Both the position numbers and the translations under genes were made by a program. 64,000 nucleotides of DNA from Lingula anatina (taxonomy: Eukaryota; Animalia; Brachiopoda): the NCBI GenBank assembly GCA_051362555.1, contig CM120640.1, forward strand, positions 29,903,967 through 29,967,966. Direction: 5' to 3'. The notes under the pieces are model-generated. The model was not told the DNA's origin. It made no database searches and was given only the letters and a program-made list of their open reading frames with translations. How positions within the stretch are numbered: the first letter of the stretch is position 1; each line of letters begins with the position of its first letter. Of the stretch, positions 11,506 through 55,500 are shown in pieces.

Positions 11506-11966
11506 GGGCAGAAACCACTAAATGGAGCAATCACTGACTGTTATAGACGAATGTATACATATACATATACAGTTCAGTGAGAGAAAGTTAATTGGTGCTT
11601 TTTACCTATTTTTCCTGGCATTTCTTGTGTGTTCCTAGCAGGCTAGGGTGTTAATTACTGCCTTTTTTTTAAATTCAGAACCAGGCATAGTTGTGGTGCA
11701 GTCGTGAGACCTCTGGTGGCAGGAGCTACTGACTGTGAGCGGTGCAGTGGTTTGTTTACAAACAGAGGGGTGCACATGTTCAAGTAATGCCGATAAAAAA
11801 GTTTACTTGATGACAGTATATTTTTGTGCCATTGGGAGTTATGTCAGTGTGTCTGCTGTCCATGGGGATGTGAAATGTTTCACCCATTTATTTTGTTCAT
11901 GCAATTTTGCAGGTATTTCTTAGTATGGCCATCAATGGGAAATTATATGCCAGGTTGTTTCTGTCC
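11506..11966. repeat. KolobokP long terminal direct repeat (complete, 461 bp)
   Basis: TGAA|GGGCAGAAACCAC ... GTTGTTTCTGTCC|TGAA, i.e. its own short TIRs. Aligns with 28118-28560. Confidence 0.85.
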
Positions 11967-14904: not shown

Positions 14905-16300
14905 CCATAGTAACTATTGAAGTTGAATAGGAAGTCATATACTGGCAATCATAATTTGACCTTAAAATTGACCTTTGACCTACTTTTCACCATGAAATGA
15001 ACTCTGCAAATTTTGCTTCCCTTTATCTCCAAAAATGGCAGAAATAGGTCCATAGTTTCTATTGAACTTGAATAGGAAGTCATATACTGGCAATCTAAAT
15101 GTGACCTTAAAATTGACCTTTGACCTACTTTTCACCATGAACTGAACTTTGCAAATTTTGCTTCCCTTTTATCTCCAAAACTGGCAGAGATAGGTCCATA
15201 GTTGCTATTGAACTTGAATAGGAAGTCATATACTGGCAATCTAAATGTGACCTTAAAATTGACCTTTGACCTACTTTTCACCATGAATTGAACTCTGCAA
15301 ATTTTGCTTCCCTTTTATCTCCAAAACTGGCAGAGATAGGTCCATAGTTTCTATTGAACTTGAATAGGAAGTCATATACTGGCAATCTTAATGTGACCTT
15401 AAAATTGACCTTTGACCTACTTTTTACCATGAACTGAACTCTGCTAATTTCTTTCTCTTTTAACTCCAAACCTGGCAGAGATAGGTCCATAGTTACTATT
15501 GAAGTTGAATAGGAAGTCATATACTGGCAATCTATATGTGACCTTGAAATTGACCTTTGACCTACTTTTCACCATGAATTGAACTTTGCAAATTTTGGTC
15601 CTTTTTATCTCCAAAACTGGCAGAGATAGGTCCATAGTTGCTATTGAACTTGAATAGGAAGTCATATCCTGGCAATCTAAGTGTGACCTTGAAATTGACC
15701 TTTGACCTACTTATTATCATGAACTGAACTCTGCTAATTTCTTTCTCTTTTAACTCCAAACCTGGCAGAGATAGGTCCATAGTTACTATTGAAGTTAAAT
15801 ATGAAGTCATATTCTGGCAATTTACTGTGACCTTGAAATTGACCTTTGACCTTCTTTTTACCATGAACTGAACTTTGCATATTTTGCTTCCATTTTATCT
15901 TCAAAACTGGCAGAGATATGTCCATGGTTACTGTTGAACTTGAATAGGAAGTCATATACTGGCAATCTTACTGTGACCTTGAAATTGACCTTTGACCTAC
16001 TTTTCACCATGAACTGAACTTTGCAAATTTTGCTTCCCTTTTATCTCCAAAACTGGCAGAGATATGTTGATAGTTACCATTGAAGTTAAATATGAAGTCA
16101 TATTCTGGCAATTTACTGTGACCTTGAAATTGACCTTTGACCTTTTTACCATGAACTGAACTTTGCATATTTTGCTTCCCTTTTTTCTCCAAAACTGGCT
16201 GAGATAGGTCCATAATTACTATAGAACTTGAATAGGAAGTCATATACTTGCAATCTAAATGTGACCTTGAAATTGACCTTTGACCTACCTTACGATGAAT
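14905..16300. repeat. 146-bp tandem array of Helentron family A (~9.5 units)
   Basis: Recurrent GACCTTGAAATTGACCTTTGACCTACTT...CCAAAACTGGCAGAGATAGGTCCATAG. Confidence 0.95.
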
Positions 16301-17919
16301 AAACTTTGATTGTACCATTTTAAGTTATACATATTTTTTGCATATTTTGAAAATTCTTGTTGATTGCATTTTTACAGCTTGTCAAGCACAAGACTGGTGG
16401 CTGTGTCCCTTACTTTGTGTATGTGGGGGTCTATATGAATGCGCTTGCTCCAGCTGGTGGTACAATATTCGGAGGCGGTATCGCCTCTCTGATCCTCTAG
16501 TTTTTTGGGAAGTAATGCTGTTTTTTCACTTTTTTCAGCATGTATGCAACACCTTTGTGCTATATGACGGTACTGTATGGATAGCAGTCTTTAAAATTGT
16601 CCCTTGGGTGATCACTAATTAAATTAAGGTCTATAAAGTCACTTGCCTACTCATTAATTTTCAATTGGCCATTAAGTGAGATTACATAAAACACTCCTTG
16701 AGATTTCCCTGTAAAGTCCCATAGGTTTAGCTCTCTTAACAGTGTCACAAAATTAGGATTTGGTGATAATTGTGCAGATAAATGGTGTTTAACATTGCAA
16801 ATAATTTACAACAAAAAGAATGTGTTATGCCAACATGCTATAGATGCATAACAGTGCTTTATTTTTCTCAAACTTGGTGGGGTTATTAATATCAAGTTAA
16901 TACAGCTAGATTAAAAGTTTGAATAGCAGCTTTATTGGAATTTTTTACGTTTTATTTAAAATTTTTTTAAAATTATTTTTCAAACAGTAGCATCTTCAAG
17001 ATGTGATTTTATACTCTCATCCACCAGAAGTGCTGTGCATTTTCTGTATTTTTGTATATAATTGTTATTTCTTCAGATTTAATCCTTAGGCATGTTAACA
17101 GTCTCATTATGGAACTAATAAGATATGTAAAAGTGTTGTTTTGACATTTTCTGCTTCTTAACAATATTGTTTGTTGATTATATAAAAATGACGGTAAACC
17201 TGTTATAATATTGTGCATTATGTAATAAAGTATCATAAATGGAAAGGAACTCATCATTGCAGTTTGTCAGATTTAATCATTCACTATGTTCAGCATCTGC
17301 AAATGGAGCAAATTGGACATTGAAAATTGTTCTATTGATATTTTTCCTATGTCAACAATTTTCCTAGTTGAACATTTAAAAATGACAGTTTATTGATCAT
17401 TTTGTTTTAAAAAAGGTGTTGAAAATGGAAAGAAAATCATTTCAGTACAGTTATCTCTTGTTTACATTTTGGCATTTTGAAAGTGTGACTCTGAACTTCC
17501 ATGGCCTTGAAGACCTTCCCAAATCACATTTTCTGAATATTCATGATACTTTTATTTTCTTATAAAAAATTTGATGGTCATTATGCTGTTAAGTATTATG
17601 TTTTATTGCATGAAAGTTGAAGAAAACCCTATTTTGGACACTGCTGCCAGGATAGCGATTAAGGGAAAACCATGTTACTTACGATACTGAAAGTGAAAAG
17701 TTTCATAAGACAGAAGTGCGCAGCTTGTGTTTGAAAACCAGTGTGATTGTTTTCTGTTTTGGAGGCAATGCAGGTTTATAAAGTGCTATACTGGCATTTT
17801 CAAGTTGTGACTTATCACTCCCATCTGCCAGGAGCCCTGTACTCTTACTTTGTAACATTTTCTGTATTTTTTCTGTACGAAATTTATGGCACATTATTGT
17901 AACTCCAAAAATATAACAT

Positions 17920-19360
17920 TTAGTCCCTTATATCTCCAAAACTGGCAGAGATAGGTCCATAGTTACTATTGAAGTTGAATAGGAAATCATATACTGGCAA
18001 TCTAAATGTGGCCTTGAAATTGACCTTTGAACTACTTTTAACCATGAACTGAACTTTGCAACTTTTTAATGCTTTTATTTTCAAAACTGGCAGAGATACG
18101 CCCATAGTTACTATTGAATTTGAATAGAAAATCATACTAGGCAATTTACTGTGACTTTAAAATTGACCTTTGACCTACTTTTAACCCTGAAGTGAACTTT
18201 GCAAATTTTGTTCCCTTTTATCTCCAAAACTGGCAGAGATAGGTCCATAATTACTATTGAACTTGAATAGGAAGTCATATACTGGCAATCTAAATGTGAC
18301 CTTGAAATTGACCTTTGACCTACTTTACACCATAAACTGAACTTTGCAACTTTTTAATGCTTTTATTTTCAAAACTGGCAGAGATACGCCAATAGTTACT
18401 ATTGAACTTGAATAGAAATCATTAGAGGCAATCTAAGTGTGACCTTGAAATTGACCTTTGACCTACTTTTCACCATGAACTGAACTTGGCAACATTTAAG
18501 TCCCTTGTATCTCAAAAACTGGCAGAGATACCTCCATAGTTACTATTGAACTTGAATAGGAAGTCTTATACTGGCAATTTAACTGTGACCTTGAAATTGA
18601 CCTTTGACGTACTTTTCACCATTAACTGAACTTTGCAAATTTTGGTTCCCTTTTATCTCCAAAACTGGCAGAGATAAGTCTATGGTTACTATTGAACTTG
18701 AATGGGAAGTCATATACTGGCAATCTAAATGTGACCTTGAAATTGACCTTTGACCTACTTTACACCATAAACTGAACTTTGCAACTTTTTAATGCTTTTA
18801 TTTTCAAAACTGGCAGAGATACGCCCGTAGTTACTATTGAATTTGAATAGAAAGTCATACGAGGCAATTTATTGTGACCTTAAAATTGACCTTTGACCTA
18901 CTTTTAACCATGAACTGAACTTTGCAAATTTTGTTCCCTTTTATCTCCAAAACTAGGAGAGATAGGACCATAGTTACTATTGAACTGGAATGGGAAGTCA
19001 TATACTGGCAATCTTAATGTGACCTTGAAATTGACCTTGGACCTACTTTTAATCAGGAATTGAACTTTGCAAATTTCCATTCCCTTTTATCTCCAAAACT
19101 GACAAGATACGCCCATAGTTACTATTGAATTTGAATAGGAAGTCATATACTGGCAATCTAAGTGTGACCTTGAAATTGACCTTTGACCTACTTTTAATCA
19201 TGAATTGAAGTTTACAAATTTTGGTTCCCTTTTATCTCCAAAACTGGCAGAGATACGTCCATAGTTGCTATTGAACTTGAATAGGAAGTCATATACTGGA
19301 AATTTACTGTGACCTTGAAATTGACCTTTGACCTACCTTACTATGAACTGAACTTTGATT
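17920..19360. repeat. 146-bp tandem array of Helentron family A (~10 units)
   Basis: Same unit, more diverged. Confidence 0.95.
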
Positions 19361-26514: not shown

Positions 26515-27933
26515 TATTAGTACCACCAGCGTGTACGCTGGCGGTACTCATGGTTTAAGTCCCGACCCGTCTCGTCCGGCTCCGCCGGCTCCTGCGGCTC
26601 CGCCGGCTCCATTGGCTCCGTTGGCTCCGCCGGCTCCACGTACTGGCGCCGGATACAAGTCACCGTTACCGCTTCTCCTCCTAGACCGCAAGGACCCCTG
26701 TCCCCATCTCTTGGATTTAGGTCACATATAACCTCAACTTGAACCCCCAAGTTTTTTTGTCTATGTCGGTGCATTGACCTGGGCGTGACACTCGTTGAAT
26801 TGCACCCTTGTCAAAATTTTAGAAAATTCAATGCCAATTATCTACCCTACGGAAGGAATTATGGGAAAAATTTCTACAGATGGCTGACCGAAAGGCATAT
26901 GTGGAGATTTCAAATATGCCCTTGGATTTGACCTTTGACCTTTGTTTCAATTTCAAATGGGCCAAAATTTTCAAAAAAACGAATTTTTTTACGAAAAAAA
27001 AAATTTTTGCTGTTATTCAGACACTACACAGACTTAACCAATAATATTATTGGAAAGTGTTCCCCTTTGGGTCATCTTTCATCTCCGTGAATTCGGGGTC
27101 AATCAGTGCATTTTCACGGGAGTAGCGGCCATAAGATACCGAAACTGAAAACTGTCTATAATTCGGGAACCATTAATGCTAGAGACCCGTTCTTTTTTGC
27201 ATTTCGTAGAGCATGTAAAGCCCAACACTGCAAGTGGTCTCGGTTTTTTCGTATTCCATACAGTTTTCAAGTTATGCTGTATCAAAAAGTACATTGTGGT
27301 TGTGAAAATTATAACATTTAGTCCCTTATATCTCCAAAACTGGCAGAGATAGGTCCATAGTTACTATTAAAGTTGAATAGGAAGTCACATACTGGCAATT
27401 TAAATGTGACCTTGAAATTGACCTTTGACCTACTTTTTACCATGAATTGAACTTTGCAAATTTTGTTCCCTTTTATCTCCAAAACTGGCAGAGATAGGTC
27501 CATGGTTACTATTGAACTTGAGTAGAAAGTCATATACTGGCAATCTAACTGTGACCTTGAAATTGACCTTTGACCTACTTTTAAACATGAATTGAACTTT
27601 GCAAATTTTGTTCCCTTTTTTCTCCAAAACTGGCAGAGATAGGTCCATAGTTACTATTGACCTGGAATAGAAAGTCATTAGAGGCAATTTACTGTGACCC
27701 TTGACCTACTTTTTACGATGAACTGAACTTTGATTGTACCATATTTAGTTATATATATATATTTTTTTTTTTTGCATATTTTGAGAATTCTTGTTGATTG
27801 CATTTTATAGAGCTTGTCAAGCACAAGACTGGTGGTGGAGTCCCTTTTTTTGGGTGGGGGGTCCATACGAATGCGCTTACTCCAGCTGGTGGTACAATAT
27901 CCGGAGGCGGTATCGCCTCTCTGATCCTCTAGT
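26515..27933 (+). mobile_element. Complete short Helentron family A element (~2.7 units of the 146-bp repeat)
   Basis: 5' GTACCACCAGCG hairpin and (GGCTCCGCC)n; 3' subterminal inverted repeat, hairpin and CTAGT. Confidence 0.88.
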
Positions 27934-28117: not shown

Positions 28118-28560
28118 GGGCAGAAACCACAAAATTGACCAATCACCAACTGTTATAGACGAATGTAGTTCAGTGAGAAAAAATTAGTGCTTCTTTTCCA
28201 TTTTTTCCTGGCATTTGTTGTGTGTTGCTGGGGTTAATTTTAGTGTCAACTAGCAGGCTAGGGTGTAAACTACTTTTTTTTTTTTTCAGGAGCAAGCACA
28301 GTTGTGGTGCAGTTGTGATTCCTCTGGTGGAGGGAGCTACTGACTGTGAGTGGTGCAGTGGTTTGTTTACAAACAGAGGGGTGCACATGTTCAAGTAATG
28401 CCGGTAAGAAAGTTTACTTTATGACAGTATATTTTTGTGCCATTGGGAGTTATGTCAGTGCGTCTGCTGTCCATGGGGATGTGAAATGTTTCACACATTT
28501 CTTTTGTTCATGCAGTTTTGAAGGCATTTTTTAGTATGGCCGTCAATGGGAAATTATATG
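28118..28560. repeat. KolobokP long terminal direct repeat (outer end truncated)
   Basis: Starts GGGCAGAAACCAC and aligns with 11506-11949. The last ~17 bp, including the TIR, are replaced by minisatellite at a TATG microhomology. Confidence 0.85.
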
Positions 28561-29337
28561 GGAAGGCAATGAACATTGTGACATCAACAATTGCTGTTGT
28601 ATTATGAGAAGACATTCAACATTGTGGCATCAACAGTTGTTGTTGTATTATGGGAAGACATTAAACATTGTGACATCAACAATTGCTGTTGTATTATGGC
28701 AATACATTCAACATTGTGACATCAACAATTGCTGTTGTATTATGGGAATATATTGAACATTGTGACATCAACAATTGCTGTTGTATTATGGGAATACATT
28801 CAACATTGTGACATCAGCAATTGCTGTTGTACATATGTATTATGGGAAGACATTGAACATTTTGATATCAACAATTGCTCTTGTATTATGGGAAGGCAAC
28901 GAACATTGTGACATCAACAATTGCTGTAGTATTATGGGAAGACATTGAACATTGTGACATCAACAATTGTTGTTGTATTATGGGAATATATTGAACATTG
29001 TGACATCAACAATTGCTGTTGTATTATGGGAATACATTCAACATTGTGACATCAACAATTGCTGTTGTATTATGGGAATACATTCAACATTGTGACATCA
29101 GCAATTGCTGTTGTACATATGTATTATGGGAAGACATTGAACATTTTGATATCAACAATTGCTCTTGTATTATGGGAAGGCAACGAACATTGTGACATCA
29201 ACAATTGCTGTAGTATTATGGGAAGACATTGAACATTGTGACATCAACAATTGTTGTTGTATTATGGGAAGACATTGAACATTGTGACATCAACAATTGC
29301 TGTTGTATTATGGGAAGACATTGAACACTGTGACATC
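28556..29337. repeat. 46-bp minisatellite, block 4 (~17 units, with a 284-bp internal duplication)
   Basis: Same unit. Variant units (GTACATATGT, GGCAACGAAC) repeat at 284-bp spacing (e.g. ORFs at 28729 and 29013). Confidence 0.97.
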
Positions 29338-30252
29338 AGCACACGAACGAAACGTACAGCCTCGATATGAAACCAGACAACTTTTGTGTTTTTAATCTCC
29401 AAATACTTTAAAAAATCAATTAAGTTAATAAAAACGCAAGGAACAAGAACTTCTTAGATCGTACATTTTATATTAATGATTATTAAAGATCATAATAATT
29501 AAAGAGTCGCATTTCGATTTACTCCATGCTATGGCCTTTATTGAAAAATAGCATTTTTTACGAGATTACAAATTGCATCGTATTGTTTGGTTCCATTGCC
29601 TCGCTTTCAAAAATAAGAACAGGCGCCCCAAAACCAGGAGACGAAGTTAAAAACATTATATTGGCCGAGTTCGCCCAGGAACAAGAATGTCCTCGTAGCA
29701 TTATCTGCAATTAACCTTCCTACGATTTTGAATGTATTTTGCAATATTATTTTCAATTTGGCCCATGGTGAATTTTATTAATCAAGAGGTGAGGGGGTAG
29801 GGAATTCCCTTCAGATAGTATGACCTCACATGACATACCTATAAATACTTCACCTTCAAAGGGAATCCCCGAACAAAATAGAAAAAATAAATAAAGTTTT
29901 TTCGATTGAATCATTTTAATGCCACAAAATGTTATTTTTTGGGGGGTCGCAACCATTTATTAGTTAATAAAGTGTCTACTCTTTCTTTTTTTTTGTTTAA
30001 ATATACAAGATACGATAAATCAAAAGTAGGTCAATTGGGGGTCAGGGATTCCCCCAACATGTACTACTCTATTTTTCCACAAATAAAATATCGTTTTCAG
30101 CAAAGACTGACATTTTCATCTTTTTATGCATACACTAATGAAAACACATCCAAAAAATATTTTTAAACGACAGTGCAAAGCTAATTGACTCGACCAGACG
30201 GCAAACACTGCCGCGCTTTGGTCCTGTGGCAGGCGACATACCAACCGTAGAA

Positions 30253-33200
30253 ATGGAGAAGTGTTGTTCTCGTCTGTCCTCCGATTGTTATGGACGTGTG
30301 TGTACTGTAAGAGATAATCGAACAGCAAGGCAGACAGGGATAGCGATAGGCTCTCCTTTGTGCCGTTATCATTATCGAGATGAATACATAAAGTTCTGTT
30401 GCACCGAAGGCACGGGACTTTTTGACAGCCACTCCTCAAGATTTCGCCCCTGTCCCGAGAGGCTTTGGGAAGTGTTAGATGACATTGGAAGTAATAACAA
30501 CAAGTAGAGAAAAGGCATCGGCATTTGCTGGTCCTGTTATAAGAAGATAGACACCACTGTCCAACATCATCCTTCATATATTCCATCAATTAAAAGAAAA
30601 AAATCAGAGGTATGGTATTTGTTCTGACATCTTATTTTTCTCACTTTTTTTAGACAAACCTAAGTTGTTTGTCCATAATACTTTAAATCATTTCTTTTAT
30701 TTCAGAGTTCATCCGATGCAGACACAGATGAAGTTACTCAAATGAACAGTGAACATGACTATGTGAGTTCACAAATAATAAATAAAGAGCAAATAATACA
30801 AAACTTGGTAAAACTTGAAAATTTCATCACTTAAAATTTTACATTTTGAAAATGCCTGAATCAAAATGACCATATTAGGCAAGAACTTTTCAAAATTATC
30901 CAGAGGCCTTTTTTCAAATTTGACAAAATTTTCTAAGTGAAAATAAAAATTATGTAAGCAGAGACTCATCTTCTGAAAAAATGTTCAAGACTGACTTAGT
31001 TTTCAAGTGTTTACCATAAAATAGTATGGCTCAATGAGCCTAAATGCATTAAAACTAAGAGAACACAGAAATGTGAGCAATTCTATTTAATTCCTTTATT
31101 TCCTAAACACATACATGTATACTTTACCAAAATAATTTGATAAATGCCATACACAGTTATGTAAGCTGCTTTTCATTAACATTCACAATTTTATTTCAGG
31201 CATCATCTGCAGAGAGTAATACTGCAATAAACAGTGAACAAGGCCATGTGAGTAAAGATAAATAAAAATCCAGTAGCAAGTCCTCTTGACTTTTTTCTTT
31301 CACAAATTAAAGACTCACTTCCAACAGGCTTTTAGATTTTTTGCCCTTGGTATTAAAAAGTCGTTACTTTGATTTCAGATTACATTCACTGCAAACAGAG
31401 AAATGACTACTCCCAGACCAGTAAACAATGAACATAACTATGTGAGTAAAGAGAAATAAACATAATTCTATACACAATAGTTATTTTGCAATCTATATAT
31501 TCTCTGAAATAAATATTACTACTACTAAGGGCCTATTGTACAAAACACATTAATCCTCACGTGATGCTTGTAGTATCCAGGGGTTTCTTTTGGATTTGGG
31601 GTATAGGGAGTCCAATATATGGATCTGAGATGTATCTAACCGAGCCATGTTCATCAGTCCGGTATGTTTAAAGACAAAAGGTCAAACGGTTTTCCATAGT
31701 TCAACACTCTTGTGGTTAGGATGGTGTGGTGAGCTTTCATGCCTTGCTTGTAGACATCTTTGGAGCACAGGGCTGGTCTTTTAACAATATTTACTCAAAA
31801 GCAATGGAGGCAAAGCGCTAAAAGCATTAGATGCTCTGCATTTTTGGAAAATTAAATAAGTAAATAGTCTTTCTCTTTGTCTTGGTCATTTGGCATATCC
31901 TGTAGGAAAGAACAATACGTTTTAGCATAAATATTAAAATTTTTTTCTAGATTTTATTTGCTGGAAGCCCAAACAGCAACACTCAGTTGATCTCCCAAAA
32001 AATAAAGAATCAGAAAGATTCCATGGAAGAGCTCCAAGAATCCATAGAAAAGCTCCATGAAGAACTGCAAATACTTAAAGACAAAGGTAAAATGATAATG
32101 ATTAATCAGTATCACAGTCCATACACGGACTGAATTATCCTCCTTCAAGATAACATTAAAACTCTACATTTAACTATAGTGAGTCAAAATCACTGAAAAT
32201 GTGTAGCCCTTGGCATAATTCTTTATGTCATTTTTTTTCCAGAAAATTTTGCTCAACTTCTTGAGACCTTTCAAAGGGCCTTATACACCCATTATGAGAA
32301 TGGTGGGGTAAAGTTATACCAACCAGATGTAATTCAGGCCTTTTGTGATAAGCATTCCCCTGGGCTGTGGCAAATGATCCTCGAGGCCATAGCACCTGTC
32401 CGTGGATCTAGTCAAAAAAGAATGGAGCTTCAAAAGCAAAGAGTAGCTAGCTTGCTACATACACTAAGCTATTTTAAGTAAGAAAAACACTAGTAAAAAT
32501 AATCTAGCATTAATGAAGTACACATTAATTTCAGCTCTAATAAATAGATGAGGTTAAAATACAAATGAAGTCTATGAATAAAAAAAGGAAAAAAAATGCA
32601 CAATTTAGGACATCTAAAAAAAACAAATGATTTTACCTATAAAATTAATTATTGCTTTTTTCTTCTTTATACTAATTACTCTGCAAACAATCGTTGACAT
32701 AAATGTATCCAAGAAGCTTTTTTTTCATATTCTTATTATATAGACTTGTATACTCTACTTACAGAAATCAGAAAAACAGCCACATGGTTAAAGATTCTGG
32801 ACTGTTCCTGCACCACAGAGGACTGTCAAAGTCTGGCCAAACAATGGGTTCTATCATGGGCTGCAGTGTGTCCAATAGTACACTTACAAGACATAGAGAA
32901 CATTTATCAGTACTCAACTCTAAATCAGTCACTCAATGCCTCAATAAAGTAGCTAAGGTGTGTATACCACCCTAGACTAGATAAATAAGCAGAAATTTAG
33001 ATAACACAACTTTTTATACCCACTTTCACTCCTGATAAAAAAGACTTTCTATCTTAAAAAATTGTAATAATAAATTATCTACATTGGGCATGTGACAGGC
33101 AATAATCATTATTTCTTTACAAATTAATAACTAAAATAAACTTCAACAGCACCAGTGTTGCTGTTTTAAAGTAAAACATTACTGTATTTAAGCATTGATA

Positions 33201-36200
33201 TTATTTACTTCAGAACAAGAAGCTACTACTTGGGTTCATTGATGACTTTCACAATGTGCACACAATAAGGGTTCCTACAGAACATCATGCATCATCAGCA
33301 GTGAGCATGGCCACTCTATTGGTTCAACAGGTTCCTGTTCCTGCCATTACCGCTTCTCCAGACCTCCATACCTCCGTTCTTGTGGACAAGAAGCTGTGCC
33401 GTGGGGGCATTGACATCTCTGCTGTCCAAACAGTCATCTCTAAACTTCAACAGAAAAGAGCTAGTAATTTATTTCAGTTACTGCCAGAGGAGTTACTTCA
33501 GCCAAATCAAACAATCTCAACAGCAACACTGGAAGAACTGAGGTATGTATATGTACATGACTATCATTTAATGACATTAAAATAATTGGTGTATCAAAAT
33601 GATGCCTTTACAATGAATTATACCCAAATATTGCAATAAGCAACCTGACATAACTCCCAATGGTACATAAATATGTTTTGTGTTATCAGACAAACTTTCT
33701 TACCGACAATCAATGCACTGCTCCAATTAGTAATACCCTTCGGCAGAGGTCTCACGACTGCACCACACCTGTGCCTGGCCCTTGGAAAAAAAAAAAACAG
33801 GCATTTGTTTACACTGTAGCCTACTAGTTGACACCAAAATGAACCCTTGTAACACACAAGAAATGCCAGGAAAAAATGGAAAAAAAGCACATATTTTCTC
33901 TCACTGAACTACATTCATCTATAACAGTAAGTGATTGCTCCATTTAGTGGTTTCTGCCCATAAAAAGGAAATTTTTTGGAAAAATCACATCCCTGTGTAA
34001 TCCTTTTATCTTGCACTGAAATTACAATACTTTACATTTTGTGCATTTTAGGCTTATTTCCAAAATAATCTATAAAATTCTTATTTTTCAGAGTTTACAA
34101 TGAGGTGCAACATAGGGAGCTAAACAAGCTCAACACTACCTTGCTGATTGATGAAGTTCATCAGCCTCTTCATTCCTTAGCAGATTATGAAAAGGCATTC
34201 AGGAGGTTGTTTTTAAGTGATGAGCTCGTGGACTATATCAAAAGCAATGCAGTTTTTCTTCCTGGGGATTACCCAACTTTCTACTTCATGAAAAAACTCA
34301 TAGCCCAACTGCCCATCACAGATCATCGCCTTCACGTTGTTCCACTTCAAGGTCCATTTCACGTCTTCTTAAACCTGATCGAGGATATTGTCATAACAAA
34401 TCACGCCTTCTTTGCCAATCTGTATCGTGAAGTCTTTGGAGGGATTCTCGCTAAAAAACCAAAACCCTTTCGTATCAGTCTTGTCATTGTTGCTGCATAC
34501 CTTGGCTGGCATCATATTCGCTCATCTATTCTTCATAAATTTCATCTATCTAAAGATTTGGAAGTTCTTTATATCCTCTTTCTTTTAGATACTCTCATTC
34601 CAACAGCATTTGTTTATTATTCTAAAATCTTTCGTACTGGAGACCTGATCAATTTCCGACTCATCACATCTCTCATTGCCATCATCTTCATCATACTTCG
34701 TCGCAAACATTACAACAAAGCTACTTTGGCAAGCATAAGCGACGACATTCATCATCAAGGTTTACCAGTCTATGAGCAAATCAAAAATTCTCATCTTAGC
34801 ATTTTCACCGAAAAACTTGTGGAACTCTTTCACAGTGTTCTGCGACGTCACATTCAGCCACATTCCACCCATCAGCAAATTTCACAAAGGGCTAAAGAAC
34901 TTTCGGCAGCAAACATCGATTCATTTTCAAGTAACTTCACCAACCAACCATCATCTTCATCCCACTCTAAAGACCTTACTTTGATCACACACAAAACTGC
35001 TGTATTCCTAGTCAAGTCATTTTCTGCAATAGCTGATCACATAGGCCAGGCCAACCAGGTAAATAAGGTTCAAAAGGGTTGAATAAAAGTACCTTGAGTG
35101 GTGGTAGTTTGGTATATTTTGCAATCGGCAAAAATTATCAGTTTTTCATAAACACTATTTTGGAATCAGAATATTCTATTTCAATTTTACCAACTTCGAG
35201 GACCTGTCCACTAAATTTTTCCCACTCTATGAAGATTAAGCCATTCCGGACTCTCCAAATTATCTTGCCTTTCTTTGTCCCAGTGATTATTTATAGAAAG
35301 TCTAATCTGAGCATGCATTTAGTGATATTTCTAATGCACAATTAATTTGGGGTGTTCAATAGCTCAACACCAATGCCAAATGTTATTGGAATATTTGGGA
35401 TAAAGAAAGCTAAAATATGCAGTTACTGCACTATATTTTGAGTGTACAACAAAGTCTTAAATTCTCCTACCACTCAGGGCACTTTCATTCAACTGGGTAA
35501 CTTCCCTTCGATTTTGAACATAGAATCCCACTCACAAGGTGGATTTATTTGAATCACAATATTGTAATGCTATTGTGTTCATACTAAAGGTTTTACATTA
35601 TAAGAATTGAGATTAGGTGCCAATTGCGATTCAAAATGTTGTGTGTGAACAGGGTAAACAACAATGTCATAAAACTATAGTTTCAATTTTACATCAATTT
35701 ACAGAGTGAAACGAAGCCAAAGGAACTTCCAAAGTACCATCTACCAGGGCTGCAAATTGATGTGGATGTGAGGAACATGCCTCTTGGATTTTCTTTTTAC
35801 GATTTTGGCGTTAGCATACCAAATATACATGTGAGGTACATTGACAATTAGCAATTAGCAACTTTTTTTTTAGAAAATAACATTGAATGTGGAAATGGAT
35901 AAATTTGCCATTTGAAAGTATGAGAAAAATGTCCTTTACCCCTTTTTTTTGCCAAAATGAACAGTTGTTATCCCTTTAACATTTAATAAGCTAAAATATA
36001 AATTAAAAACAAAATGTATGATGATATCATGCAATGAAATATTTCTTACCTTTTCAGATGTGAAAGCACAGAGTGTTTGGCTGATGAAAATGCAGAATTC
36101 AAAATACTCATGTGTGGGCACTCATTTCATATAGCCTGCATGCCCAACCAATGCCCTTTTTGCCTAAAAAACATAAACAAAAGACTAGCAGACCTTTCAA

Positions 36201-37173
36201 ACACTTTTAATCTGTCATTACTACAAAAAAAAATGTCCGGATATCAAAAGAGAAAGTGATTGCTCTACAGACGATCTTTCCTCATCACCATCTAAAAGCC
36301 CTTATTACCATTCACAAGACTTTCACCATGATCTACAAAAACACATCAATTCCATCAGCACCCTGCCATTTCCAGCAAAAAACAACATCAAACAAACACA
36401 ACAAGAAACCAAACAATCATACAAGCAAAACACTGTTATCACTCCCAAAATACACACAAACCCAGGCAAGCTAGCAGACAAATTAAAAAACCACACAAAC
36501 TTACCACTAAACAATCTTCACTTCACAGAACTTAAGGACATTGAAAAGCTAGCATGCCCATGGCAGGGAACAACATCTCATGGCATTAAACTCATCAACA
36601 CATGCCCCATGGATTTCATCCTCAGTTGCATAATCATATCTGCCATTAAATCACCTTCATTTCGGAACCTGCTTTTTTCGTTATCAAACCCCACTGCATT
36701 ATCCCTCCAGCAAATGTACCATATGCTACACGCCACCAAGTCCTGGTCAGACATACGCCTTCATTGGCTGAAACTTACAAACAACAGATTTTTAGCCGCA
36801 AATCTGAACAACAACACCCTCAACTGCTGGGGTGAGGAAATGGACCTTATCCTCTCCCCCATTTGGAATTCATCCCTGGGAAACATGTCTGCAAAACCCA
36901 TACACCATTGTCCAACCTGCAACCAAACCAGAGCAAGAAACCCAATTAAAACCCTTCCAGTGCACAAAATTCTAAAACAGTAAGTTATTACAATATTTTT
37001 TAAAATAAATGTTTCTTTAAAAATATTGTTTAACACATTAACTTTAATAATACTACATTTTTTGACCGAGTTAAGTTCAATTATTCTACTACATTTTACT
37101 AGGTTCAGTATCTTGATGTGTGATGAAATGAGAAATATTTGAGGCACACCCAAATAATTATATTGCACTCAGA

Positions 37174-37221
<48 letters not shown>

Positions 37222-38346
37222 TTTCCAGGCATGGAAGTGGCATCACACACCTGCAAACTGCAGTAAATGAAGTTCTAACACCAACATCTACAAAATACAC
37301 AGATTCTAAGTGCCCACAGTGCAATACGACAGAAAGGATTCATTTTGAACTCGAAAGACAGCCTCCTTTGTTGTTGTTGTGGGTGTATCCATATGCACTG
37401 TAAGTGCAATCATGTCAAAATATATTAATAATTAGCATAATATGTATAAATTAATAAAAAGATTAAATAAATAAATATTCAAGAAATAGATAACATTAAC
37501 AGTCTACCATGTTAGCTTCCGACTAAACCAGCTAAATTTTGTTTGGACCAGCATTTTTCTCCTTAAAGTTTCAAAAATAGAGATCTTTGATTAGTATTTT
37601 TCAGGAATGTACTTATGATTCTAAATTTAAAAAAAATAAAAGTAATGTTTGACAAAACCAACTGCTACAATCTTTTGCAACTATAAATATTAATGTAATA
37701 GGGTAAAATGTGTGGTTTCATTGGAAATTTCTAATTAAGGCCGTAAATCCTGATTAGTAGCTGGGGTCCTAAAGATAAGCGAGCTGAAAGTTTATGACAC
37801 ATGCTTTGCATTAAAACAGATTAACATTAACAATGTTTGTTTGTATTACATTTTTTTTTGCATATTTTTAATTTCAGGGAGCAACGTGGCATAAAGTTGA
37901 CAGATGTGCCTAAACACTTAACTCTAGGCAACACAGAAAATAGGTAAATATCAAGCTGATAATTAATGACCTTGTTATTGTTTGTAAACATAAAGCACAA
38001 TATGGGTATTATTAATTAGTTAACACCTCAAGACTGTTCAACTTGCTCTCAATCCCAATAATATAGATTATGTTACAAACCAAAAGTTTTAGAAAAATTG
38101 AAGTGATATATATTTGTTTTCAAATGTATAAAGGTTAGCACATTGAACAAGCTATACTTTACTTTCAGATATACACTGGTGGGCACTTCAGCTTACAGAG
38201 ATAGTCACTACAGTAGTCACTTTGTGCGAGATAGGGTATTTATAAAGTACGATCCACTTCATTTACCTGGTGACTGTAAGACTGCACTGGATCTTTCAGT
38301 TCATAACAGCCCACAGATGACCAACACCTTAGTGTACATTTTATGA
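30253..38346 (+). pseudogene. 14-exon, ~1,283-aa Academ-related DDE transposase fused to a RING finger and a USP-like cysteine protease (one nonsense codon, one +1 frameshift)
   Basis: Exons 30253-30609, 30706-30762, 31200-31247, 31379-31441, 31951-32086, 32243-32477, 32765-32957, 33214-33542, 34092-35058, 35705-35835, 36058-36979, 37229-37399, 37878-37943, 38169-38346; all GT-AG and phase-compatible. Motifs IDDFHN, PGDYPT, GPFH..LN, VELFHS; CGHSFHIAC..CPFC; NTCPMD..HY..YD. Lesions: TAG at 30505 and an A9 run at 36225-33. Confidence 0.85.
33645..33959 (-). mobile_element. Partial solo KolobokP terminal repeat in intron 8
   Basis: Reverse complement begins GGGCAGAAACCACTAAATGGAGCAATCAC and aligns to 11506-11847. 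Confidence 0.8.
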
Positions 38347-38599
38347 TTTGTTTCAAGTCACTTACTTATTGGTTTGCTTGAAGACTTAAGGCTTTGGGCA
38401 TGTCACTGGCTTATGTTAAAACTCCTTAAAGTAATAGCTGTATGTGATAATGTTAGAAATGGTCCAGTCATAAGCTTGAAAATTTGAAACAAGTATTTTA
38501 AAAACGTGAGATTGCACTAGTATGAAATGGATGTTTTCTGGGGTATCACATGGTGATACACATTTTTAATGCAACTGTTAAGAAAAAACTGTCCAGTGT

Positions 38600-41120
38600 A
38601 GTTTGCAGTGGTTTGGTGCCATTTCTATGTGTGGAAAACAAATAGGATTCTGAGTCAGAGTGTAAAGCAATACTTGGTGCACCTCAGACATTTCTCATCA
38701 CATTATACATCAAGATGTCAGACCTGGTAATAATGAAGTAGAATAACTGGTAATGAAGCATGTGAAAAACTACCTTGATCAGAACTCTGCAGTTCACAAT
38801 GTATTACCTGAACACATGATGACTCTTCTTTCTATTGCATCACTCTTCATTTTCTGAGCTTGATAATTTTTTCCAGGGGCAGACACTGTCATATGGCTAT
38901 TGCTTTTGTTTACTGACTGTAAAGTGAAGTTAAATTACTGGCTCTGTATCACAAAAAAGGGTTACACTGCAGCAGGACCTTTTATCATGCTGCTTATCTA
39001 TGTACACATTTTAATATCATTTTGAGATATTATCTTCATCCAAATTTTTTTATTTAAACAATTAGGATTTGCTGCTTGAAAAGCTTAGCTAGTACATCCC
39101 TTGGGATGCATGTTATTTGTCAAACACTGTGATATTGCAATTGTTGTCATTTATATAGTTAATATGTTAGATTCAAAAAAATAAATTCACAAAAAAAAAA
39201 AGTTAAGATGAGCGAAGTTATTTAGGACAGAGTAACTTCTTCAATATCTTCAATACCTTAGTCTAAAAGGATAACTAGCAACATTGTATTATACAGTAGT
39301 GGGTTAACAACAAGGACTTTATTTAAATAATTAAAACATTCTGTTGCGTGTGAGTAAAGTTATCTTACTAAACTCTGAATTTGATATATTTGTTATGATT
39401 TTTAAATCATGTCAGCACTATAAAGCTCGGAGAATTGCTGTTTAGGGGATGGGGAAGGGGGTTCATCTCAACTCAAAACATTTGGAGCATGAGTGGAATG
39501 ATCTCAAATTATCAATTTTAATCTATTACCACGGCTACTGGGTGGACTTTTGTTTTAAACATATGTCCATATAATTGCTTGAGATTCTAAAATTTTACCT
39601 CCAGCCTGAAAATAATGCATTAGCTCTACTAATAATGATTTTAAAATGTACTGTGCTAAAGCATAACACAATGGCCTCAAAAAGGGTAAAATATTGACCA
39701 GTTTTTGCCTCCAGTGTTGATACGGGTCCCAAATTTTTATCTTATCTCTGATCTCCTCCACCAGAATACTAGTAAAGCAAATCAGTTTTCCCCTTGGCAG
39801 AGCCATACATAAGCTACAAAAAGATTCATCTGATCTTCATCAATAGTAGTGCCAATGCATAAATTTTGGTCCAGCTCAGCATAAAAAAAGGCCTTACGCC
39901 CAGTGCTTAAGGGAGGAAAACCTCCCAATTGGTTCTTTAAAAGAACGAGAAATCGCTTGGCAATAAAATCAAAACTTCTTGACATTTAGTTGTTGATAGA
40001 ACTTGCAAAATTTTATGTAAACAATCGAGCAACAAAAGGGTTGACTACATACTTCTCAAGTTCACAAACACATGATGCTTCCAGATGGCATGCACAATCT
40101 TGCAGGATCCACAGTGCTGTATGATAAGGTAGAATTTTGTGATGGATCATCACTGGTGCCTCAATTATCAACCTGGTACTAATAAATGAAAATTGAAAAA
40201 AAAAAAAAGCCTGAGGAAATTACATAAGAACATCACGATTTACCAAGTATAAGGTGGATCTGATGTCTTCTGTTATTTTATTCAGATTTTTATCTTTCAC
40301 TTCCTCTCAATTCTGTCTCAAGCTAATCTTATCATCTCTACAGGTCTATGTGGATAAATAGTGCATGGCCTCACTGTTGTGAGCAGATAAAACATATTTA
40401 AATGTAATTTTTGCCTTCCAATTATGACAGCTGAGCTTACTGCCAGTGAAATTTTACTGTATTACTTACTTAGTGTTTATTTCTGATGCAAGTTTCCACT
40501 GGTTCCTCTTTATTGGACTTTTCCTCCAAAACTAACTGTTGACTTCCAATGTATTCTCATTGGTCGAAAAACTTGAAGTTTATTTAAAAAAAAAAACATT
40601 TGAAACAAGTAAGGAAATTTCCACACTAAATTATTTTAAGACATTTCTCAAAGACAACCACATAATTATTAGATAAGCATCGAAAATGAGAGTTACAGGC
40701 TTGGGGGAATACAAAAATACTTAGTTCTTCTTTACCACGTAGTTGTAAGAGATAAAAGTCCCGGAGAATTTGTGAATATTGCTGAAAAATAAAATCGAGT
40801 TAATTGTCCCTTTTCTACACTATGGTAAACTAGTATGGTGTTCTAAAGTAGCTTTCCGTAGTTTGGGGGTCTATAAACTTGGCTGATTAACCCGTCAAGT
40901 TGACAGTTTAGTGTGAACAAAAAAAAAAAAATTCTTTGATATCAACCGTGCCAACGGAAAAAATCACACTTGTAAAATTACCGTTTTTGTCTCTAGTTAA
41001 CATACGTGTTCTCGTACTTTAAATAGTCTAGACATTTTCACTCTTTCGTTGCCTACGGTATGCAGAGCGAAGAAAATGTTAGACTTTTACTTACCTACCA
41101 CGAGGCAATGAATCCGCCAT
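38600..41120 (-). pseudogene. Degraded second, convergent spliced gene of the 11.8-kb element (possibly Ulp1/C48-like)
   Basis: AAAATGGCGG start (MADSLPR) then a GT donor near the right TIR. Coding-like frameshifted blocks at 39555-39985 (IDEDQMNLFVAYV..LICFTS..KIKIWDP). Identity uncertain. Confidence 0.4.
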
Positions 41121-41180
41121 TTTGTGCTGTTAATTTCAAGTGGCGCTTTCGCACATGCGCAGTCGTTTGAAACCTGTGCT

Positions 41181-41626
41181 TGTGACATCAACAATTGCTG
41201 TTGTATTATGGGAAGACATTGAACATTGTGACATCAACAATTGTTGTATTATGGGAAGACATTGAACATTGTGACATCAACAATTGTTGTTACATTATGG
41301 GAAGACATTAAACATTGTGACATCAACAATTGCTGTTGTATTATGGGAAGACATTGAACATTGTGACATCAACAATTGTGGTTGTATTATGGGAATACAT
41401 TAAACATTGTGACATCAACAATTGCTGTTGTATTATAGAAAGACATTGAACATTGTGACATCAGCAATTGCTGTTGTATTATGGGAAGACATTGAACATT
41501 GTGACATCAACAGTTGTTGTTGTATTATGGGAAGACATTGAATATTGTGACATCATCAATTGCTGTTGTATTATGGGAAGACATTGAACATAGTGACATC
41601 AACAATTGCTGTTGTATTATGGGAAG
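41181..41626. repeat. 46-bp minisatellite, block 5 (~10 units)
   Basis: Same unit; the array ends here. Confidence 0.97.
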
Positions 41627-50035: not shown

Positions 50036-51700
50036 TTCAATTCAATTCAATTCAATTCAATTCAATTCAATTCAATTATTTCTCTTGTTTTCACATTGAG
50101 AACATGTAACCAATTTCCAATATTCTTTTGGAATTTTACTTCTCATGTTCTTAATTTTTTTTTTAATTGGCATCTATAATTAGTAAAAGATTTATCCATT
50201 ACAGTTTTATAATGTTTCTGAGCATCAAGAACCACTTGTTTAAATAAAGTGGATCCATATTTGTTATATTTACAATGACATTTACAGTACTCCTTACGTG
50301 CGATACGACACTCATTGCCGAACTCCTCTTTATGCTTTTTCGGGGTATATTTAGTTTTATTGTTGTTATATCTATAAGATCCAAATGTTTTCTTAGCTGA
50401 ACTCAACAATACTTCAGCAGTCTTTTCAAAAATTGAATCAATTTCCTTTTTCTCCACACTGCCAAGATCCAATCTTTTGAAACCATTTTCAATTTTTTTG
50501 TATATCAATAATACAAACTACGTCAATTTTTCTCTTATATTCGTCAGCTTTATCAGTATGCCATTGTTTAATTCTTTCTATGTGTTCACCCACATCTATA
50601 TTACCCTCTAGAGTACACCTATTAGAGTTCTGTTGGATTATACTGAGGTGGCAAACCAGCGGTAAATGAATATCTGAATAAAGACAGTTAAAATTTAAAA
50701 TCTCAAAATATGTGACAAAATTTAAGAAGTCAGCATTAAAAATAAAATAATTTACCAACTTGATCATCACTACCCACTCTTACATTCATTATATACAAGC
50801 TGTGAGTCTAAGAGACCATTCCCACAGATATTTAGATCGATCTATCCCCCTGGGGAGTCTCACTAGATTGCTGTCAGCTTAACCGGCTGAAATGTCTGTC
50901 CCGCCTACTAAAAGCTGTAAGAGGGTAAATAACTTTTGTGCGCGCTTGGCTCCTGGCAGCGGACAGCAATTAAGTGTGAACCCAATTAAGTGTGAACCCA
51001 AATGGATCGATCTAAATCTGTGGGAACCCAGTCTTACAAAAATTTAGTAAATAATTAACAAAGTTGTTAACTGTACTGTCTTTACTCATAGGTTTTACAC
51101 TGGTCCCATTTATCTCTAGTTTATGGACATCTGTTAAATGATCAAAATTTTTACCAAAAGCTATTTCAAATTCAGACAGTTCACTTTCATCATAATAGTC
51201 ATTTTTATCGCCCACCCTTGAATTAAAATCTCCGGTAATACAGACGTGGCTATAGTTAACACATAAATTAATGTATTCAAGTTCTATTTCAGCAAATGCA
51301 TCAGGTGAGCTGTACCTTGATCCCTCAGGTGGGATATAAACAATTCCGGTGTTTGGGTCAAACGGTGGATTGTCAATGTAAAGTTTGTCTACCTTCAAGA
51401 CAGCTTTCTTATCCTGGTTCTTAGCTTCCTTTAGGTGCGGAATCAGCATCTTTCTTCGTTCGTTTATTTTCTTAGGAAACTGCTCATTGACTCTGAATCA
51501 TTTATTTCCTTAGGAAATTGCTCATTGACTCTGAATCGTTTTCCCTTCAGCGCTCACAGGGCGGCTTTCCTCAGCATTACCTTGTCCGTTAATTAATGAT
51601 CCACACTTTGCGATGGTTGGCCTATGTTTCCCCAGTGTATGCTTTTCCATGCGGTGAACCCTTTTCAAATTTTATTTCGTCAATGATTCCCAGAAACTGC
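50036..51700 (-). mobile_element. Internally deleted CR1/L2-group LINE relic (ORF1 end, APE endonuclease, (TTGAA)n tail)
   Basis: ORF1-like LIPHLKEAKNQDKKAVLKVDKLYIDN fused to VYIPP..CITGDFNSRVG. SDIHLPL motif and WF-like FGNECRIARK region. (TTCAA)8 at 50036-50076. Confidence 0.85.
50814..51033. mobile_element. MITE nested in the LINE
   Basis: TIR TTCCCACAGAT(AT)TTAGATCGATC ... GATCGATCTAAATCTGTGGGAA. Related ends at ~42320-42363 and ~43578-43625. Confidence 0.7.
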
Positions 51701-52510: not shown

Positions 52511-55500
52511 TTATTGTACCACCAGCGTAGGCGCTGGCGGTACACATGGTTTTAGTCCCGACCCGTATGTTCCGCCGGCTCCTGCGGCTCCGCCGCCAAG
52601 TCACCGTTACCGCTTCTCCTCCTAGACGGTAATGGCCTCCATACCCATCTCTTGGATTTAGGTCACCTATAATCTCAACTCGTTCCACGTAAAATTTGGG
52701 CTTTGTCGGTATTGGGGTCTAGGTGTGGCACTCATTGCAATGCACCCTTGTCCAAAAATGGCAAAATTAAATGCTAATTATCTCCCCTACGGAAGGAATT
52801 ATGGGAAAAATTTCTACAGACAGCTTTCCAAAAGTCATATGTGTAGATTTCAAATATGCCCTTGGATTTGACCTTTGACCTTTATTTCAAGGTCAAACGG
52901 GCCAAAATTTTCAAAAAAACAAAATTTTTGCCGAAAAAAAAATTATTTGCGGTCTTATTCAGACACCACACAGACTTAACTAATAATATTAATGGAAAGC
53001 GTTACCCTTCAGGTCATCTTTCATCTCTGTGAATTTGGGGTCAATCGGTGCATTTTCACGGGAGTAGCGGCCATAAGATATAGAAACTGATACTGAAAAC
53101 TGTCTCTAAATCGGGAACCGTTAATGCTAGACACCCATTCTTTTTTGCATTTTGTAGAGCATGTAAAGCCCAACACTGGAAGTGGTCTCCGTTTTTTTGT
53201 ATTCCATACGGTTTTCGAGTTACGCTGTATCAAAAAGTACATATTGGTGGTGAAAGCAAAATGTGCAGTACGGTAATGGATAATAAATTTTGAACTCCGG
53301 AAAAATAAAACATAAGGCTTGGCAAAGCAGACAACTTGTGGTCAAAAATGACATTATTTCATCAAATTTGAACATCTGGAACTTCAGAGCACCTCCTATT
53401 TCAAGAATTTTGACCAAAATGACCTTTTCTTTATTTTAATTAATTTTTTCTGTAGGAAATTTATGGCACATTATGGTAACTCCAAAATTATAAAATTTAG
53501 TCCCTTATATCTCCAAAACTGGCAGAGATAGGTCCATAGTTACTATTGAAGTTGAATAGGAAGTCATATACTGGCAATCTACATGTGGCCTTAAAATTGA
53601 CCTTTGACCTACTTTTCACCATGAACTGAACTTTGCAAATTTTGCTTCCCTTTTATCTCCAAAACTGGCAGAGATAGGTCCATAGTTACTATTGAAGTTG
53701 AATAGGAAGTCATATACTGGCAATCTAAATGTGACCTTAAAATTGACCTTTGACCTACTTTTCACCATGAACTGAACTTTGCAAATTTTGCTTCCCTTTT
53801 ATCTCCAAAACTGGCAGAGATAGGTCCATAGTCTCTATTGAACTTGAATAGGAAGTCATATACTGGCAATCTTCATGTGACCTTAAAATTGACCTTTGAC
53901 CTACTTTTCACCATGAACTGAACTTTGCAAATTTTGCTTCCCTTTTATCTCCAAAACTGGCAGAGATAGGTCCATAGTCTCTATTGAACTTGAATAGGAA
54001 GTCATATACTGGCAATCTTCATGTGACCTTAAAATTGACCTTTGACCTACTTTTCACCATGAACTGAACTTTGCAAATTTTGCTTCCCTTTTATCTCCAA
54101 AACTGGCAGAGATAGGTCCATAGTCTCTATTGAACTTGAATAGGAAGTCATATACTGGCAATCTTCATGTGACCTTAAAATTGACCTTTGACCTACTTTT
54201 CACCATGAACTGAACTTTGCAAATTTTGCTTCCCTTTTATCTCCAAAACTGGCAGAGATAGGTCCATAGTCTCTATTGAAGTTGAATAGGAAGTCATATA
54301 CTGGCAATCTAAGTGTGACCTTGAAATTGACCTTTGACCTACTTATTATCATGAACTGAACTTTGCAAATTTTGCTTCCCTTTTATCTCCAAAACTGGCA
54401 GAGATAAGCCCATAGTTACTATTGAAGTTGAATAGGAAGTCATATACTGGCAATTTACTGTGACCTTAAAATTGACCTTTGACCTACTTTTCACCATGAA
54501 CTGAACTTTGCAAATTTTGATTCCCTTTTATCTCCAAAACTGGCAGAGATAGGTCCATAGTCTCTATTGAAGTTGAATAGGAAGTCATATACTGGCAATC
54601 TGAAAGTGACCTTAAAATTGACCTTTGACCTACTTTTCACCATGAACTGAACTTTGCATATTTTGCTTCCCCTTTATCTCCAAAACTGGCAGAGATAGGT
54701 CCATAGTTACTATTGAACGTGAATAGGAAGTCATATACTGGCAATCTAAGTGTGACCTTGAAATTGACCTTTGACCTACTTATTATCATGAACTGAACTT
54801 TGCAAATTTTGCTTCCCTTTTATCTCCAAAACTGGCAGAGATAGGCCCATAGTTACTATTGAAGTTGAATAGGAAGTCATATACTGGCAATTTACTGTGA
54901 CCTTAAAATTGTCCTTTGACCTACTTTTCACCATGAACTGAACTTTGCAAATTTTGATTCCCTTTTATCTCCAAAACTGGCAGAGATAGGTCCATAGTCT
55001 CTATTGAAGTTGAATAGGAAGTCATATACTGGCAATCTGAAAGTGACCTTAAAATTGACCTTTGACCTACTTTTCACCATGAACTGAACTTTGCATATTT
55101 TGCTTCCCCTTTATCTCCAAAACTGGCAGAGATAGGTCCATAGTTACTATTGAACGTGAATAGGAAGTCATATACTGGCAATCTAAGTGTGACCTTGAAA
55201 TTGACCTTTGGCCTACTTATTATCATGAACTGAACTTTGCAAATTTTGCTTCCCTTTTATCTCCAAAACTGGCAGAGATAGGCCCATAGTTACTATTGAA
55301 GTTGAATAGGAAGTCATATACTGGCAATTTACTGTGACCTTAAAATTGACCTTTGACCTACTTTTCACCATGAACTGAACTTTGCAAATTTTGATTCCCT
55401 TTTATCTCCAAAACTGGCAGAGATAGGTCCATAGTCTCTATTGAAGTTGAATAGGAAGTCATATACTGGCAATCTGAAAGTGACCTTAAAATTGACCTTT

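Follow-up and report, generated by a model that had tools for sequence, protein, structure and literature searches.

A transposon of Lingula anatina with a 9-bp target-site duplication, a predicted Academ-like transposase, a RING-like finger and a likely deubiquitinase tail

The window analysed here, a stretch of 64,000 nucleotides from the brachiopod Lingula anatina (contig CM120640.1), contains at positions 29338-41180 a DNA transposon inserted in a 46-bp satellite. Its single gene encodes, by predicted structure, a DDE transposase followed by a RING-like finger and a C-terminal domain that likely acts as a deubiquitinase. A previous description, made from the letters alone (the sequence-only reading), had proposed a DNA transposon with a 9-bp target-site duplication (TSD) and imperfect terminal inverted repeats (TIRs), whose Academ-related transposase is fused to both a RING finger and a protease resembling the ubiquitin-specific proteases (USPs). 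The element ends and their target, in positions of the window, are as follows; the satellite was delimited with Tandem Repeats Finder (TRF).

29338-41180: whole transposon, 11,843 bp, first bases AGCACA and last bases TGTGCT (ends AG...CT)
29329-29337, plus strand: left TSD, 9 bp, TGTGACATC, from the register test
41181-41189, plus strand: right TSD, 9 bp, TGTGACATC, from the register test
29338-29354, plus strand: left TIR, imperfect (12/17)
41164-41180, minus strand: right TIR
28557-29337: left portion of the 46-bp satellite array into which the element inserted (28557-29338 by TRF); target, outside the element
41181-41626: right portion of that 46-bp satellite array (41180-41626 by TRF); target, outside the element

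Since the match of a 9-mer alone is trivial inside a satellite target, we tested the register: the element was excised together with k flanking bases, for k from 0 to 15, and the resulting joint was compared with the 46-bp satellite period. The period is restored at k = 9 only, with 45 of 46 positions identical, the other 15 values of k giving 7 to 17 of 46; the duplication is therefore real and 9 bp long. Boundaries implying a TSD of 10 or 11 bp are ruled out, because the register fits 9 alone and other copies stop at 41180. The terminal inversion covers 6/6 and 12/17 end bases, with P 2.4e-4 from the binomial distribution and 65 hits among 200,000 random pairs, and in a diverged copy of the element, found in RNA run X17, the first eight bases of the left TIR match 8/8. 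Register and TIR statistics thus uphold the 9-bp TSD and imperfect TIRs first seen by eye. A long TIR was not found, local alignment over 400 bp scoring 48 against a shuffled mean of 43 and maximum of 75 (the left arm begun one base inside), and no further copy of the element ends lies inside the window. Joints between satellite units that bypass the element were not taken as empty sites, since other satellite units yield identical reads. The window contains four or more short arrays of the 46-bp satellite (4510-4947, 6585-7022, 11014-11635 and 28557-41626), each possibly borne by a mobile repeat.

Inside these ends we find a single gene and a long right region.

30253-30609, plus strand: exon 1, Cys/His-rich N-terminal domain (likely zinc-binding and presumably DNA-binding)
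30706-30762, 31200-31247 and 31379-31441, plus strand: mini-exons 2-4, mutual duplicates (DNA identity 70-82%) with ends EHDY, EQGH and EHNY
31951-32086, 32243-32477 and 32765-32957, plus strand: exons 5-7, coiled coil and helical region ahead of the catalytic core
33214-33542 and 34092-35058, plus strand: exons 8-9, predicted RNase H-fold DDE core with helical insertion
33241, 34267, 34360 and 34822, plus strand: core residues D373, D532, His563 of GPxH, and E717
35705-35835, plus strand: exon 10, conserved beta linker (LPLGF-type motif)
36058-36979, plus strand: exon 11, RING-H2-like finger, a run of nine A (A9), linker, then the USP-like domain's N-terminal half
36059-36163 and 36603, plus strand: within exon 11, the finger from C840 to C874, and Cys1021
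37229-37399, 37878-37943 and 38169-38346, plus strand: exons 12-14, with the USP-like domain's second CxxC, QPPLLLL and His box
38206, 38251 and 38344-38346, plus strand: His1238, Asp1253 and the stop codon TGA
38347-41163: right region of 2.8 kb, free of Pfam matches and of open frames longer than 93 aa; a diverged copy uses antisense splice signals at 40173-40465

The 14 exons total 3,853 nt (1,283 codons), all 13 introns are of the GT-AG type, and GC content is 0.41 in exons versus 0.29 in introns. This reproduces the gene of the sequence-only reading together with its two lesions, and every motif it named is present in the stated order. The first lesion is an in-frame TAG in exon 1 (codon 85, 30505-30507). 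In exon 1 the sequence before and after this stop is coding, since relatives P0066, P0063, P0072 and P0074 align across it (E 5e-12 to 4e-5 in a set of 200 proteins). The stop is also present in DNA run X7, in a contig with 0 differences, while the covering contigs of X1, X2 and X5 hold 1-2 unplaced differences. The second lesion, a +1 frameshift, is one extra base in the A9 run of exon 11, near 36225; contigs of X1 have this base and those of X2, X5 and X7 lack it, so that it is not fixed. A RefSeq protein of Lingula anatina, XP_013391131.1 (P0001, 969 aa), matches exons 6-13 and has the same exon joints as far as exon 13. Exon 9 is, over the whole of that exon, 100% identical to P0001. Along model residues 281-1221 the protein departs from the model at five positions, of which two fall at its loss of the frame, in exon 13; it passes the A run in frame and ends without the His box. 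Judged by its reading frame, the window copy is disabled by the exon-1 stop.

The four DNA runs also bear on other copies. One contig of X1 passes from the element 29 bases into the satellite, one of X2 matches 39890-41180 with 0 substitutions and continues for 261 further bases, and five of X7 have loose ends behind 41180. The X2 and X7 contigs suggest that the same right end sits in other flanks, and recent movement is a possible reading. A copy about 88% identical occurs at about half depth in X2 and X5; the depth of the element interior is otherwise fairly flat in the DNA runs, hence the family is low-copy in Lingula. Some contigs share 41147-41180 alone, and over a left subterminal segment (29435-29760) each of the four DNA runs reaches depths in the thousands; together these suggest short non-autonomous relatives or a nested repeat.

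Relatives elsewhere also behave as transposons, since one of 13 metagenome loci (L006) has inverted repeats and near-identical proteins lie on different contigs. The L006 repeats, at 596-650 and 3948-4000, are 94.5% identical over at least 55 bp and are cut by the contig end. The dispersed proteins are 96-98% identical in Ptychodera, 99.6% in Branchiostoma and 99.4-99.8% in ENA assemblies. Two further loci, L009 and L011, have in common an inverted match of 48 bp (79%). Beside the left end of L006 (2-430, minus strand) lies a frame resembling ORF1 of a long interspersed nuclear element (LINE).

Could the gene be a domesticated host gene, flanked by repeats through chance? It is rich in introns, low in copy number as judged from the flat interior depth, and annotated as a host gene. 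However, the exact duplication in satellite register together with the TIRs, the nonsense and frameshift lesions, the other right flank in run X2, and the TIRs and dispersed near-identical copies of relatives make this explanation very improbable.

The protein core (exons 8 and 9) is, on its predicted structure, a DDE transposase of RNase H fold with D373, D532 and E717 as catalytic residues. The AlphaFold2 (AF2) model has a predicted local distance difference test (pLDDT) mostly between 70 and 90 over the core; core and finger are confident, and the tail is not. VIA-align placed the P element first (Z 11.0, 343 aligned residues, root-mean-square deviation 5.5), then Hermes (Z 10.0), followed by Tn5, integrases and RAG1 (Z 6.2), with almost only DDE enzymes down to rank 35, in agreement with the RNase H fold previously expected. 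In P element, hAT (Hermes) and RAG1/Transib transposases, too, a large helical segment is inserted into the RNase H core, after the second Asp and before the Glu. The core residues are conserved in 116/116 (D373), 121/128 (D532), 130/136 (H563) and 118/124 (E717) aligned relatives, and G560 in 132/136, counts that include near-identical cluster members. A C/DxxH motif after the second Asp marks the transposases of hAT, P, MuDR and Kolobok as well as of Dada (PMC9587614); the Lingula protein has G560...H563 (GPxH) instead.

This core belongs to a large family. A search with a profile of 24 relatives returned 2,538 clusters at E<=0.001, 1,437 at 1e-10 and 422 at 1e-30, of which the best 150 were inspected. 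Sixteen proteins were looked up, and the named members come from Nematostella, Acropora, Sanderia, Oscarella, Branchiostoma, Ptychodera, Gigaspora and Pompholyxophrys, so that the family spans brachiopod, hemichordate, amphioxus, cnidarians, sponge, glomeromycete fungi and a rotosphaerid. The resemblance to coral and glomeromycete proteins put forward in the sequence-only reading is thus matched by cnidarian and glomeromycete relatives. Among viral contigs, 83 pattern matches yielded no confirmed relative. In the Atlas, the nearest structures to the core are glomeromycete-type and mollusc clusters (TM 0.84 and 0.77), and a cluster that is 95% DUF6589 meets the naming bar at TM 0.68, with a DUF6589 feature score of just 0.77; over the DUF6589 clusters the TM values run from 0.68 to 0.77. 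By predicted fold and TSD the family appears Academ-like, and it may belong to the Academ superfamily.

Does the element encode a partner enzyme? The gene leaves 915 bp to its left and 2,834 bp to its right. The longest open frame on the right side is 93 aa, and none of the nine right-side frames tested had a Pfam match. Six-frame scanning of the element revealed no Walker A or GRAGR motif of a helicase, the lone DEVH lying in the transposase frame and not being conserved, and no second gene for an XPG-type or other nuclease was found; the earlier statement that neither helicase nor XPG was seen is thus supported. We considered a second gene on the minus strand (39985-39558), made of pieces of 67 and 93 aa in different frames and resembling by eye a decayed Ulp1-type protease, and rejected it, as it has no Pfam or PDB match and no RNA depth over 39250-40045.

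AcademH elements encode a superfamily-2 helicase and AcademX elements a nuclease. If AcademH elements end in YR...YR, the AG...CT ends here would not fit. AcademH elements create TSDs of 9-10 bp and AcademX elements TSDs of 3-4 bp, a difference suggested to follow the partner enzyme (PMC10045372). The Lingula element shares with AcademH the 9-bp TSD, a DUF6589-like fold, occurrence in animals and fungi, and low copy number, but it has no helicase gene, carries a C-terminal RING-like finger and protease tail, and ends in AG...CT. With AcademX it shares a superfamily-level fold lead, and differs from it in its longer TSD and its lack of a nuclease gene. The element may be an ordinary AcademH-type transposon that has lost its helicase or does not show it here, or a member of a family already in Repbase, with the tail as a captured passenger devoid of any role. 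The AcademH-like TSD length (PMC10045372) and the DUF6589-like fold favour this. On the other hand, the distant element L006 likewise has no room for a helicase: it holds one gene for transposase and finger, ending in an acidic tail, with no protease, helicase or second gene. Moreover, 103 of 104 relatives have no DUF6589 sequence match. We regard this explanation as unlikely, and return to the passenger tail below.

The finger is found in 26 of 200 proteins, many of them fragments, and these include members that end without a protease. All eight C3H2C3 (RING-H2) ligands are kept, each in 26-29 of 27-30 aligned relatives. Conservation of these ligands, together with a PDB profile search with seven relatives that ranks RING-H2 ubiquitin ligases (E3s) first (Arkadia, E 7.6e-4), and the encoding of finger and protease Cys box in one exon, could support a transposase that edits ubiquitin at its insertion site, the RING acting as an active E3 and the protease removing what it adds. 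Active RING E3s, however, typically carry a Trp in the central helix and an Arg after the last Cys. This Arg occurs in 1 of 26 fingers and the Trp, between ligands 6 and 7, in none of 26; the loop between these ligands has 4-11 residues, the window copy having the shortest (4). Pfam RING scores for the finger are below the cut-off. The scarcity of residues of the E2 surface lowers the likelihood of E3 activity, some active RINGs also being without them. Furthermore, the finger is kept where no protease follows, and the comparable finger of piggyBac, once proposed to be a RING or PHD, binds DNA (PMC5861402). Active ubiquitin editing is therefore a rather unlikely explanation, and the pairing of RING and USP to add and remove ubiquitin, put forward in the sequence-only reading, is unsupported. 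Nor is it supported that this pair defines the lineage, the finger being family-wide and the USP-like tail present in 1 of the 200 proteins examined. Because E3 residues are rare and the piggyBac finger binds DNA, we favour a role in structure or DNA binding: by analogy with that cross-brace finger, it most likely has a structural function, helps to form multimers or binds DNA.

The tail behind the finger is unlikely to be a separate gene, because finger and Cys box share exon 11. By motif position it presents Cys1021, two CxxC, His1238 and Asp1253 in the order of USPs. In the Atlas it obtains a feature score of 0.95 to a cluster named DRIP1/C14orf28, and TM of 0.51-0.61 to PF00443 clusters, under the naming bar. 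It thus resembles C14orf28/DRIP1 and the USPs (C19, PF00443) in its Cys box, CxxC fingers, His...Asp order and Atlas matches, and differs in having no Pfam UCH match and no sequence homologue found; C14orf28 is, for its part, a potential papain-like deubiquitinase by prediction (PMC10318531). Given this predicted kinship, the tail likely acts as a deubiquitinase. The Atlas shows the same USP-like fold on cnidarian SAP/YqaJ proteins, on fungal kinase fusions and on giant-virus proteins, which suggests a wider mobile module related to C14orf28.

Relatives carry a different protease-like domain at the same place, of the VTD (herpes-tegument) type, a finding that had escaped the sequence-only reading. 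Among the 26 finger-bearing proteins, six tails have both VTD motifs (a SNAC-type Cys and DSH), one is USP-like (P0001) and 19 end within 190 residues, some of these perhaps as truncated gene calls; partial versions occur in P0059 and P0066. The bearers of VTD are a hemichordate (Ptychodera) and several animal-like records, and VTD is absent from the window protein. The relatives' VTD domains weakly match Pfam Herpes_teg_N (E 5e-4) and the PDB deubiquitinase 8adb (E 0.013), which we take to be a VTD. VTD deubiquitinases are recognised by their Asp-x-His signature, and those of zebrafish Helitrons are active (PMC9741609). We built a tree of 46 core sequences, leaving out 28 cluster members (P0025-P0052) and proteins without either core motif. 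In this tree VTD appears in two groups apart from each other, and P0074 of Ptychodera, which bears VTD, is the sister of the Lingula protein (support 95/93). As the nearest sister carries VTD, replacement of VTD by the USP-like domain in the Lingula lineage would be the simplest reading of these sequences.

Is the tail then a passenger without a role? The window element is broken and its USP-like tail is without a second example, as such a passenger would predict. Yet the Cys, the His, the Asp and both CxxC have stayed in frame across four exons, and proteases unrelated to one another are found repeatedly in this position; both points speak against a passenger.

Overall, we consider it probable that this is a cut-and-paste-type transposon with an Academ/DUF6589-like DDE transposase, a family-wide RING-like finger and an exchangeable C-terminal domain that is likely a deubiquitinase. 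The transposase would bind the short AG...CT ends and excise the element, then insert it at cuts staggered by 9 bases, using the customary RNase H reaction and no helicase encoded by the element. The protease would be an optional accessory, stripping ubiquitin either from the transposase, which would guard it against turnover, or from chromatin or repair proteins at the break. Lineages would gain, lose and swap this accessory (VTD-type versus USP/C14orf28-like). The disabled window copy would move in trans or by means of a shorter product. Roles in protection and in ubiquitin clearing have been proposed for other transposon proteases (PMC2836005, PMC9741609).

Several observations weigh against this explanation. 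The TSD is visible for one insertion only, the contigs of relatives being too short to show theirs. For the core, Foldseek returned nothing at E<=0.001, its top entries being Hermes (best 0.061) and RAG1. DUF6589 is matched by sequence in 1 of 104 relatives (E 0.0016, below the cut-off), and it is our assumption that DUF6589 represents the AcademH-type transposase; the Academ relation proposed earlier is supported at the level of predicted fold. A helicase could come from another element. The VTD matches of relatives lie below curated cut-offs. As for the USP-like domain, the motif order agrees by position and the fold is a lead, but there is no Pfam UCH (PF00443) match, either with the exons searched separately or with P0001, which is without the His box; a PDB sequence search with P0001 gave 0 hits; and word-based protein searches, which are weak, returned P0001 alone. 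The call comes from one source, the Atlas, with all structure rows under the naming bar, and a single-sequence fold of the tail reached a pLDDT of just 37.9. USPs usually carry Asn five residues before the catalytic Cys, where the tail has Lys. Finally, RNA was covered by four runs (X11, X14, X15 and X17), with 6-25% of each read and at least three reads required per joint; the joints listed for these runs include not one of the 13 introns of the model, so that the splice junctions of the proposed gene did not appear.

The RNA runs contain another signal. In X11, X14 and X15 the exons have almost no depth. Among the sequencing runs listed as containing this DNA, none is registered as RNA. In X17, reads of the diverged copy show four joints with GT...AG ends on the minus strand (5-9 reads each), and a spliced antisense transcript crosses exons 8, 9 and 11. 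This transcript may feed silencing, as far as one run allows. Near the right end, the minus strand (41120-41089 and 40465-40173) has an inward ATG in the context AAAATGGCGG and behind it a GTAAGT donor; together with the four introns that X17 shows on the minus strand, these suggest that the right end contains an antisense promoter.

The principle of fusing a transposase to a protease is already published. Ginger1 swaps OTU and Ulp1 tails, and Trichomonas has a fusion of transposase and Peptidase C19 (PMC2836005). Ginger1, Mutator-Ulp1 and the Trichomonas C19 fusion are thus like the present family in being DNA transposases that end in an exchangeable ubiquitin or SUMO protease (PMC2836005); their core is unrelated, and here the exchange involves VTD-type and USP/C14orf28-like domains. 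Erven et al. 2022 noted cnidarian fusions of VTD to transposon-associated domains (PMC9741609). The Helitron VTD deubiquitinases share with the tails of our relatives an Asp-x-His protease on a transposon protein, but Helitrons are rolling-circle elements, the present DDE family is unnamed in passages of that paper (PMC9741609), and the window tail is not VTD. What appears to be new is the combination of an Academ-like core, a 9-bp TSD without helicase, a constant finger and a swap between VTD and USP-like tails; our literature search found no description of the family by title or abstract start, and Repbase, Dfam or the AcademH paper may already cover it.

These results add a large transposase family that has no Pfam model. 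If the family is Academ-related, a 9-bp TSD without an onboard helicase tests the idea that the partner enzyme sets TSD length. Two unrelated proteases in one slot, along with protease-free members, offer a natural comparison for the role of transposon-borne deubiquitinases, and a transposition assay could start from the compact one-gene relatives, about 4 kb long. A broader view would have an opisthokont-wide DDE lineage, sister to Academ, with helicase-free 9-bp TSDs, an active RING E3, a slot filled independently by VTD or USP/C14orf28-like proteases, and possibly a transposon origin of vertebrate C14orf28; we hold this to be improbable.

Other repeats lie in and around the element. Intron 8 harbours a dispersed repeat (33645-33959) of very high DNA depth, 71-81% identical to 28118-28458 and 11506-11847 in opposite orientation. 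Short pieces of high-copy intronic repeat at 35943-35980 and 31647-31697 draw many partial reads, and an internal inverted match of 101 bp (73%) joins 37078-37177 with 38651-38749 around exons 12-14. Elsewhere in the window, a 145-146 bp unit forms arrays whose flanks are shared, at 14954-19340, 27287-27726 and 53438-56278; they resemble Helitron-type or MITE (miniature inverted-repeat transposable element)-borne satellites. On the minus strand, frames at 50143-51497 look by eye like LINE remnants (the end of ORF1, an endonuclease and the region preceding the reverse transcriptase), and 6088-6604 has, by eye, a THAP-like zinc-finger pattern, possibly a remnant of P or Harbinger type.

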